Under the pieces are notes generated by a model, which was not told the origin of the DNA, searched no databases, and saw only the letters and a program-made list of their open reading frames with translations. Source: a virus (Duplodnaviria; Heunggongvirae; Uroviricota; Caudoviricetes). Taken from it: a stretch of DNA of 64,000 bases. This document shows positions 38,575-38,860 of this stretch, piece by piece. Location: the IMG/VR virus record IMGVR_UViG_3300031758_000005. One strand, given 5' to 3'. A program made the position numbers and the translations under genes. Each line of letters begins with the position of its first letter. Within the stretch, counting starts at the first letter, position 1.

Positions 38575-38860
38575 AGATAGTGGCGGAACAACCTTTGTAT
38601 AGGGGTAACGCACAATAGTGGTGAAGAATCATTATTGGTTGGAGTAATAATGTGCAGTGTAAGTCTATGGCGGATTGTGGGTCGTACAACCTATAATTCA
38701 AGCGTAACGACATCGTAGCTAAAATAAATGATATATCGTAGGTCGTTGTGGGAAACCAATCCCATCAATCGTTAACATAGAGAGTAATTAACTTTATGGA
38801 TTGTGGATGAATAACGGTGCATATTGTGAAACTTGGAGGTAATCATTAGTCCTTCCTATT
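38575..38860 (+). ncRNA. Candidate ~290-nt structured RNA
   Basis: Follows boxA at 38559; no ORF of 60 aa or more; at least seven hairpins, e.g. GCACA/TGTGC, ATAGTGGT/ATCATTAT, TTGTGGGT/ACCTATAA, AACGAC/GTCGTT and TGGGA/TCCCA. Confidence 0.55.

Follow-up and report, generated by a model that had tools for sequence, protein, structure and literature searches.

The tRNA operon of bacteriophage T4 encodes two stable non-tRNA RNAs, rnaC and rnaD (species 1 and 2), that are co-transcribed with the operon and processed from it. Both are linear and 120–140 nt in length. The manA RNA was listed among riboswitch candidates in 2010 and was described together with wcaG in T4-like cyanophages (Weinberg et al. 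2010, PMC2864571). By cryo-EM, RNA-only cages of manA have been demonstrated in vitro, and the same preprint reports 60-mer icosahedral cages, decamers, and octamers that are held together via kissing loops and loop–receptor contacts; circles, tRNAs, and cells are not discussed there (10.64898/2026.07.01.735769). The GOLLD and ROOL RNAs (RF01998 and RF03087) likewise form RNA-only multimeric assemblies (bioRxiv 10.1101/2024.12.08.627333).

In this report, we describe a locus that was originally predicted, from its sequence, to encode a new or reduced large ornate noncoding RNA at positions 38575–38860. The flagged stretch is a real, conserved, and expressed gene for a structured noncoding RNA of approximately 315 nt on the + strand. 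The true unit is slightly wider than was predicted, with the gene at 38557–38871 and the mature RNA at approximately 38570–38869.

A conserved RNA gene in a phage tRNA array

The gene is found in a 64-kb window, the whole stretch of DNA that was analyzed, which is part of a large phage with genes for a family-B DNA polymerase, sugar-nucleotide enzymes, and a SpoU-type RNA methyltransferase. The virion proteins in the window are common to T4-like cyanophages, and the closest relatives of the phage are uncultured freshwater contigs from IMG/VR, one of which is a complete 296-kb genome. An array of tRNA and tRNA-like genes extends from 35242 to 39149 (+), and sigma-70-type promoters repeat along it. 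One of these promoters (TTGACA, 16 nt, TG-TAAGAT) is located at 38408–38435 (+), at the head of the transcription unit that contains the RNA gene, and the same promoter type occurs again at 36323.

As predicted, the RNA is situated between tRNA-Leu(UAA) (38473–38548, +; 58.1 bits) and a tRNA-Gly, although the latter is better described as tRNA-Gly-like. This element (38872–38945, +) is the usual 3′ neighbor of the RNA and has the acceptor sequence GCGGGUC, a U73-CCA end, the loop CUACCAG with the anticodon ACC, and an aberrant T arm with a 4-bp stem and an 8-nt loop. Neither ARAGORN nor Rfam made a call at 38872–38945. Three compensatory changes between phage types were found in its anticodon stem. 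The tRNA-Gly-like genes of relatives are UCC versions, some of which have an 8-nt anticodon loop (L028 and L029). The predicted boxA was also found, as an exact match to the boxA-like motif GTTCTTTAACAA at 38559–38570 (+), and it is invariant across copies of the RNA. Nine boxA-like motifs were matched in the window; two are exact, and six of the nine fall within 2.4 kb of the array, on its + strand. The remaining compositional claims of the original prediction are borne out as well. The GC skew is +0.26 in the element and approximately 0 in its flanks, and no open reading frame of 60 or more amino acids is present on the + strand of 38557–38871; the sole open reading frame is 49 amino acids long and is on the − strand.

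Other unusual features are found in and around the array. Two tRNAs with the anticodon UAU and a long variable arm are encoded on the + strand at 38097–38190 (94 nt) and 38958–39050 (93 nt), and this is an unusual combination for a decoder of AUA. Two low-GC open reading frames for homing/HNH-type endonucleases are located within the array at 35325–36050 (−) and 37200–37979 (+), and they may be drivers of the cassette shuffling. The gene for the SpoU-family RNA 2′-O-methyltransferase (33075–33617, +) lies 1.6 kb upstream of the array, and its product is a possible modifier of the odd tRNAs or RNAs of the phage. Among the relatives, L015 has a genuine group I intron (74.8 bits) at 518–710 (+), in the tRNA array just upstream of its RNA copy. 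Long tRNA-like genes of ~130–170 nt, with acceptor and T arms and large internal insertions, were observed at ~5930–6070 of L027 and upstream of the element in L026.

The folding of the single sequence is only slightly better than that of shuffled sequences, with z scores of −1.94 and +0.95 for the + and − strands, respectively. The comparative evidence is decisive for an RNA gene. The whole unit (38549–38949) is conserved at 82–97% in a BLAST comparison with loci that were fetched via a neighboring virion protein, and compensated stems are visible already in a three-way alignment. An RNAalifold consensus of 12 distinct copies contains 87 pairs, 13 of which are compensatory. With a covariance model, R1, 50 copies were detected on freshwater phage contigs among loci from IMG/VR and freshwater metagenomes. 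Pattern matches in L074, L075, and L078 proved to be unrelated coding DNA. Across 41 distinct copies, 98.8% of the cells in the alignment pair and 25 pairs are changed on both sides, a value that was reached by none of 500 shuffles. In controls where the partners were shifted by 1–3 columns, 37–43% of the cells pair overall (39–43% for the 41 copies). With 14 diverse copies, including the divergent L064b, L077, and L071, the corresponding figure is 97.3%, and 39 of the 87 pairs are changed on both sides, providing compensatory support for 12 of the 15 helices. A search for pseudoknots by column covariation gave a signal that was dominated by the phylogeny of two clades.

The covariance models match the gene from end to end with 15 helices. 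The long-range closing helix 1 is formed by 38569–38580 (+) and 38856–38866, with an inner part of GAUAG/CUAUU; it is 91–95% paired and has only one compensatory pair. It is followed by the 5′ motif hairpin (helices 2 and 3; 38580–38613, +), where helix 3 has three to four compensatory pairs, and by a central domain (38646–38834, +) that is closed by the long-range helices 5 and 6 (17 pairs) and encloses helices 7–14. Helix 6 has six to seven compensatory pairs. The central domain has about five hairpin arms, with helices 7 and 8 stacked on one another and helices 13 and 14 similarly stacked. Two palindromic hexamers are found in its loops. UAGCUA (38716–38721, +), which is part of the large and conserved helix 10/11 loop, is invariant in the 12-copy alignment, and UAAUUA (38785–38790, +), in the loop of helix 14, is invariant even in the divergent L064b and L071. 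The terminal hairpin (helix 15; 38835–38855, +), with an invariant loop of 11 nt, directly precedes the 3′ strand of the closing helix, and its compensatory pairs come through L071. The hexamer AUUUAA occurs at both ends of the RNA (38570–38575 and 38864–38869) and is kept in 17 of 17 distinct flank pairs, while the 1–4 nt between the repeat and the next tRNA vary. Both copies of the end repeat read AAUUUC in L064b.

Most of the helices that were originally listed are retained with covariation. These are ACCTTT/AGGGGT (helix 3), ATAGTGGT/ATCATTAT (helix 4), TTGTGGGT/ACCTATAA (helix 9), AACGAC/GTCGTT (helix 10), TGGGA/TCCCA (helix 12), CAT..AGT/ACT..ATG (helix 14), and GGAGG/CCTTCC (helix 15). 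The predicted helix GCACA/TGTGC is not conserved, and its bases are part of the 17 pairs of helices 5 and 6.

Within boxA-punctuated tRNA operons of giant phages from freshwater, the RNA behaves as a cassette. In the relatives L028–L033, the tRNA-Gly-like element comes immediately after tRNA-Leu(UAA), and both the ~300-nt RNA and its boxA are missing. This DNA-level presence/absence polymorphism corresponds to 38552–38863 of the window, with TTTGA at both borders, and may have arisen either by insertion, with duplication of 5 bp, or by deletion at microhomology. The borders of the DNA indel are offset from the junction found in RNA (below). A promoter is found directly in front of the RNA in L020, L027, and L042, and in L042 a normal tRNA-Glu replaces the tRNA-Gly-like element on the 3′ side. 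L064 has two paralogs, of which the second, divergent copy (4675–4987, −; 225 bits) is located between tRNA-Lys and tRNA-Glu. In the window, the slot that holds this second copy in L064 is occupied by a structured spacer of 214 nt (36471–36684). Since the RNA can be absent between the same tRNAs, can have its own promoters, and can occur as a second copy elsewhere, it is an independent unit and not part of either neighbor. A BLAST search of the region against published phage genomes gave matches on the flanking tRNAs only.

Resemblance to manA and wcaG

No Rfam family reached its threshold on the element. GOLLD and ROOL had been suggested as analogs, and neither was matched on the element at E values of up to 10; the element has 315 nt, and these RNAs have ~580–800 nt. 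There was also no Rfam match on the element to RNase P, tmRNA, group I or group II introns, T-box, Y RNA, or small ribozymes. The group I intron model (RF00028) did not match the element, although it finds the true intron of L015, and the empty site in relatives without the RNA is an intergenic spacer. An rRNA fragment or mimic was rejected, with no match to SSU or LSU rRNA and an nhmmer comparison to an rRNA operon that gave only 2.6 bits over 43 nt. The 5′ motif resembles a conserved stretch of 16S rRNA, but the likeness does not continue beyond it. A scan of genome contigs with this motif gave 14 matches, approximately the number expected by chance; only a single match fell within a 16S gene, and another fell within a MAG-binned phage fragment.

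The only non-tRNA Rfam family found on the element was manA (RF01745), which was matched in seven of the seven copies tested. The scores were 14.2 bits for the window, 14.6–18.8 bits for other copies, and 28.7 bits for the best copy, L071, all of which are below the Rfam gathering threshold of 55.2 bits. The copies are homologous to one another, and the seven matches are therefore not seven independent tests. For L071, which is the most divergent copy, the match to manA has an E value of 1.1 × 10⁻⁵ in a search of 411 nt with all 4227 families.

The reverse comparison was made with canonical manA RNAs from marine IMG/VR contigs that score 155–196 bits. The narrow model R1, used with default filters, found no manA among 40 manA loci. 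A second model, R2, was built from the 14 diverse copies and was run with the filters off on six marine manA loci. It ranked the canonical manA RNA first in five of these six phage loci, over the full length and on the right strand (18.9–13.1 bits; E values of 7 × 10⁻⁵ to 5 × 10⁻³ for the top manA matches), and eighth in the sixth locus. In the R2 alignment, the closing helices of the two RNAs correspond to one another, helices 2 and 3 correspond to the manA motif hairpin, GUG-CUGAAUAA...UAAG, and helix 15 corresponds to the terminal hairpin.

The features that define manA are partly shared. The RNA has a long-range closing helix, then UG, and then the hairpin flanked by the CUGAAUAA/UAAG internal loop. 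L071 keeps this 5′ motif almost letter for letter, and the window has a degenerate GGAACAA/UAAC in the same place. The manA terminal hairpin, with its GGUA...AAUCC loop before the 3′ closing strand, is aligned by helix 15, and helix 12 is similar as well; the Rfam model aligns the last hairpin of manA to helix 12, and R2 aligns it to helix 15. The GUG-GAUGAAUAA motif occurs a second time, and this, together with the resemblance of both helices 12 and 15 to the last hairpin of manA, suggests a partial internal duplication. The central junction of manA, three hairpins closed by a 6-bp helix, and its separate long hairpin were not found in this RNA. Neither was the 5′ P1 hairpin of manA nor its placement in 5′ UTRs; boxA stands in the place of P1, the neighbors are tRNAs, and there is no open reading frame downstream on the + strand. 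From these comparisons, we read the RNA as a distant and enlarged relative of manA, ~120 nt larger, which is not a member of the family by the criterion of Rfam.

An adjacent tRNA is found at only one of nine canonical manA loci. At that locus (L104, 344–627, −), a canonical marine manA is followed by tRNA-Asn 14 nt later on the same strand, and the other eight loci have no nearby tRNA. No manA was found in the cyanophages S-RIM12 and S-SKS1. A spacer RNA just after tRNA-Glu at 36771–36876 (+), 1.7 kb upstream of the element, matches wcaG (RF01761) with 30.2 bits and an E value of 0.002, which is below the Rfam threshold of 42 bits, and a tRNA-array spacer of L044 (198–302) matches wcaG with 27.5 bits. 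The array may hold relatives of both cyanophage riboswitch candidates, manA and wcaG.

The prediction of a new or reduced large ornate RNA stands insofar as this is a genuine, conserved, and expressed structured noncoding RNA of a phage tRNA array. However, the RNA is not a reduced form of either GOLLD or ROOL, and as an apparent distant relative of manA it is not wholly new. The analogy to GOLLD and ROOL still has merit in that manA is likewise reported to form RNA-only multimers.

Head-to-tail junctions in RNA and competing explanations

The flagged stretch is contained in 20 public sequencing runs, six of which are recorded as RNA, and the contigs of four RNA runs were examined. The RNA libraries are described as random-primed or "other" RNA-Seq and are not small-RNA ligation libraries. 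In a riverine run (X16), a contig of 295 nt consists of the element alone, exactly 38572–38866, at a depth of 257, and the contigs of the flanks have depths of 7–16. This contrast is no more than a hint of accumulation of the RNA, as contig depth is a poor measure of abundance.

The ends of the RNA are joined in several of these contigs. A contig of 60 nt from run X16, of another sequence type, reads from 38833 to 38869 and then continues into the first 23 nt of the element. Its word depth of 493 is the highest among the contigs examined, and most of its words span the junction. In a third sequence type from the same run, loose ends before 38570/38572 read as the 3′ end of the element. Run X17, which belongs to a different study, contains a contig in which 38864 is joined to 38573, a step back of 292 nt. 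Junctions were therefore found in three sequence types from two metatranscriptome studies (river and lake), and no other back-joint was found in the 861 nt examined. The joined segment is approximately 292–294 nt long and falls within 38570–38869 (+). The exact register of the junction is ambiguous across the AUUUAA hexamer that the two ends share, and the junction length varies by 1–2 U. The length variation fits a trimming of the ends before enzymatic sealing better than it fits ribozyme chemistry; slippage fits as well. Joining contigs start at or after 38570, which places boxA outside the joined part, and boxA is part of the DNA cassette but lies wholly or almost wholly outside the joined RNA. 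In runs X15 and X20, contigs span the element and its flanks with no junction, a result that is compatible with either the presence or the absence of circles in these runs.

The junction sequence has no match in 2.9 million viral DNA contigs of IMG/VR, more than 20 of which carry the element, and no match in 97 loci; there are no tandem copies among 50 DNA copies. Since a 3′-to-5′ junction is found in the RNA contigs of two studies and is absent from the DNA contigs of IMG/VR, the RNA is probably a covalent circle of about 294 nt. A literature search for phage circular RNA in tRNA arrays gave no relevant report.

The same junction would be produced by template switching on the tightly paired 5′/3′ stem or by head-to-tail multimers. 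A stable linear RNA, processed from the tRNA operon in the manner of T4 rnaC and rnaD, with junctions that arose from template switching, library ligation, or rare tandem DNA copies, is an explanation that we regard as unlikely. Its appeal is that paired 5′ and 3′ ends favor template switching by reverse transcriptase, that the junction varies by 1–2 nt and is known from contigs assembled for public runs rather than from the raw reads, and that two RNA runs gave contigs which pass linearly through the flanks. However, no other contig equals the junction contig in word depth, the junction recurs between studies and sequence types with no other back-joint beside it, the libraries were not made by small-RNA ligation, and neither a tandem copy nor a junction was found in DNA. 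It is scarcely credible that the joined ends are those of a self-splicing intron, remnant or active, or of some other self-circularizing mobile RNA element. No intron or ribozyme family was matched at E values of up to 10, no gene is interrupted, and the borders of the DNA indel differ from the RNA junction, which itself varies in length. Moreover, a variant in which GU precedes the AUUUAA repeat excludes a terminal G for the junction and leaves A or U as the possible 3′ ends, whereas group I circles have a terminal G. The circle-like ends, the presence/absence polymorphism with the short repeat TTTGA at its DNA boundaries, the homing endonuclease genes of the array, and the true group I intron nearby in L015 would all be in keeping with such an element.

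The resemblance of boxA and the closing stem to rrn leaders, and the presence of a tRNA or tRNA-like element almost always within 1–4 nt of the repeat on its 3′ side, could also be taken to mean that the RNA is a cis-acting processing or folding spacer, an rRNA-leader-like stem that lacks an independent function and organizes the processing of the odd tRNAs by RNase III or RNase P. A processing stem would need far less than the approximately 300 nt, the 15 conserved helices, and the numerous invariant loops found here, related phages make the same tRNAs without the RNA, and the element forms its own contig in RNA runs; this explanation is highly improbable. There is more room, though not much, for the view that the RNA belongs to a new, independent class of structured RNA, with a likeness to manA that arose by convergence or coincidence. 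No manA score reaches the threshold, the two models disagree on the partner of the last manA hairpin (helix 12 or 15), and a tRNA array is a different setting from the 5′ UTRs of manA, which has an adjacent tRNA at one of nine canonical loci. Against this stand the reciprocal, full-length matches on the right strand, with manA first in five of six loci, the E value of 1 × 10⁻⁵ for L071, the motif order and closing topology that manA and this RNA have in common, and the wcaG-like RNA in the same array. These observations are best explained by a stable phage RNA that acts in trans and belongs to the manA superfamily, and we favor this reading with some confidence.

Proposed maturation and comparison with known systems

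For this RNA of the manA superfamily, the following maturation pathway is proposed. Transcription from the promoter at 38408, with boxA/Nus antitermination, would yield a precursor that is then cut at both sides of closing helix 1. If the cuts fell after positions 38571 and 38865, which the ambiguity of the repeat allows, the product would have a 2-nt 3′ overhang, as is typical of RNase III; alternatively, an RNase E-type enzyme could cut just before AUU at both sites. Either cut would leave a 5′-phosphate and a 3′-OH atop a stem, an arrangement that resembles a nicked hairpin loop and thus the substrate geometry of T4 Rnl1. The ends, held by the weak A-U/G-U closing helix, would then be sealed into the ~294-nt circle. 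Closure would lock the fold and shield the RNA from exonucleases, and, as the closing helix is rich in A-U and G-U pairs here and rich in G-C pairs in manA, covalent closure may substitute for helix strength.

The likely sealing enzyme would be a phage ATP-dependent RNA ligase of the Rnl1 or Rnl2 kind, as is encoded by relatives of the phage. The complete 296-kb phage (G002) encodes an Rnl1-type ligase (56.9 bits) at a distance of 7 kb from its RNA copy, and a second related phage (G001) encodes an OB-fold RNA ligase (96 bits). Both ligases are of the ATP-dependent kind, and RtcB was not found in either of these two records. No RNA ligase homolog was found by tblastn in the 64-kb window, which is only part of its genome.

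The closed RNA might self-assemble by loop–loop contacts into a ring or cage, as manA does in vitro, but our confidence in this step is low. The palindromic loops at 38716–38721 and 38785–38790 are candidate kissing-loop contacts. Taken as a whole, the proposal is that a covalently closed circular RNA, encoded in the DNA of giant freshwater phages, is cut from a tRNA operon, sealed by a phage RNA ligase, and assembled into a capsid-like, RNA-only cage in the infected bacterium. We put this forward tentatively, as a possibility that is rather doubtful in its entirety. Sequestering, scaffolding, or action as a decoy are proposed as possible roles of such an assembly in the infected cell.

If the proposal is true, then manA, and perhaps wcaG, would be trans-acting architectural RNAs rather than riboswitches, and phage Rnl ligases would have a biosynthetic role beyond the repair of tRNA. 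The manA relative described here is not in a 5′ UTR and cannot, for that reason, be a cis-regulator. It also provides a handle on the form and role of manA in cells, since it appears as a discrete species in environmental RNA and its ends appear to be joined. The wcaG-like RNA 1.7 kb upstream indicates that the spacers of phage tRNA arrays may be a reservoir of architectural RNAs. It would be unusual for a natural circular RNA to be produced by enzymes in a bacterial or phage system.

Circular RNAs are found in archaea as pre-rRNA intermediates and as C/D box sRNAs that are closed by an ATP-dependent Rnl ligase (PMC9014305). The pathway proposed here would resemble these in the excision from a processing stem, in the subsequent enzymatic sealing, and in the stabilization of a structured noncoding RNA as a circle. 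The archaeal RNAs are cut at a bulge-helix-bulge motif by the splicing endonuclease, whereas the setting here is bacterial, with sigma-70 promoters and boxA. The known role of Rnl1 is repair after attack by a host nuclease. As in the repair of a broken tRNA anticodon loop by the T4 enzyme, two ends atop a stem would be joined here, in the geometry that Rnl1 prefers; unlike in that repair, the proposed role is the making of a circular RNA. The RNA shares with T4 rnaC and rnaD its location, as a non-tRNA RNA, within a phage tRNA cluster. GOLLD and ROOL are also phage-borne, noncoding, and often found beside tRNA genes, but this RNA has no match to either in sequence or structure and is half their size or less, and we know of no evidence that GOLLD or ROOL is circular.

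The comparison with manA is the closest. Both RNAs are phage-borne and are built from a long-range closing helix that is followed by UG and a hairpin with the GAA-AA/UAA internal-loop motif, a helix-closed center of several hairpins, and a terminal hairpin with a GGUA...UCC loop that abuts the 3′ closing strand. They differ in size (~315 nt here versus 190 nt for manA), in an extra hairpin (helix 4) that is absent in manA, and in the center, with approximately five arms closed by 17 pairs in this RNA and three hairpins closed by six pairs in manA. On the 5′ side, boxA is found where manA has the P1 hairpin, and the closing helix is weak and rich in A-U and G-U pairs rather than in G-C pairs. 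Finally, manA is found in the 5′ UTRs of marine cyanophage genes, whereas this RNA is found in the tRNA arrays of giant freshwater phages, and its ends are joined in the RNA data.
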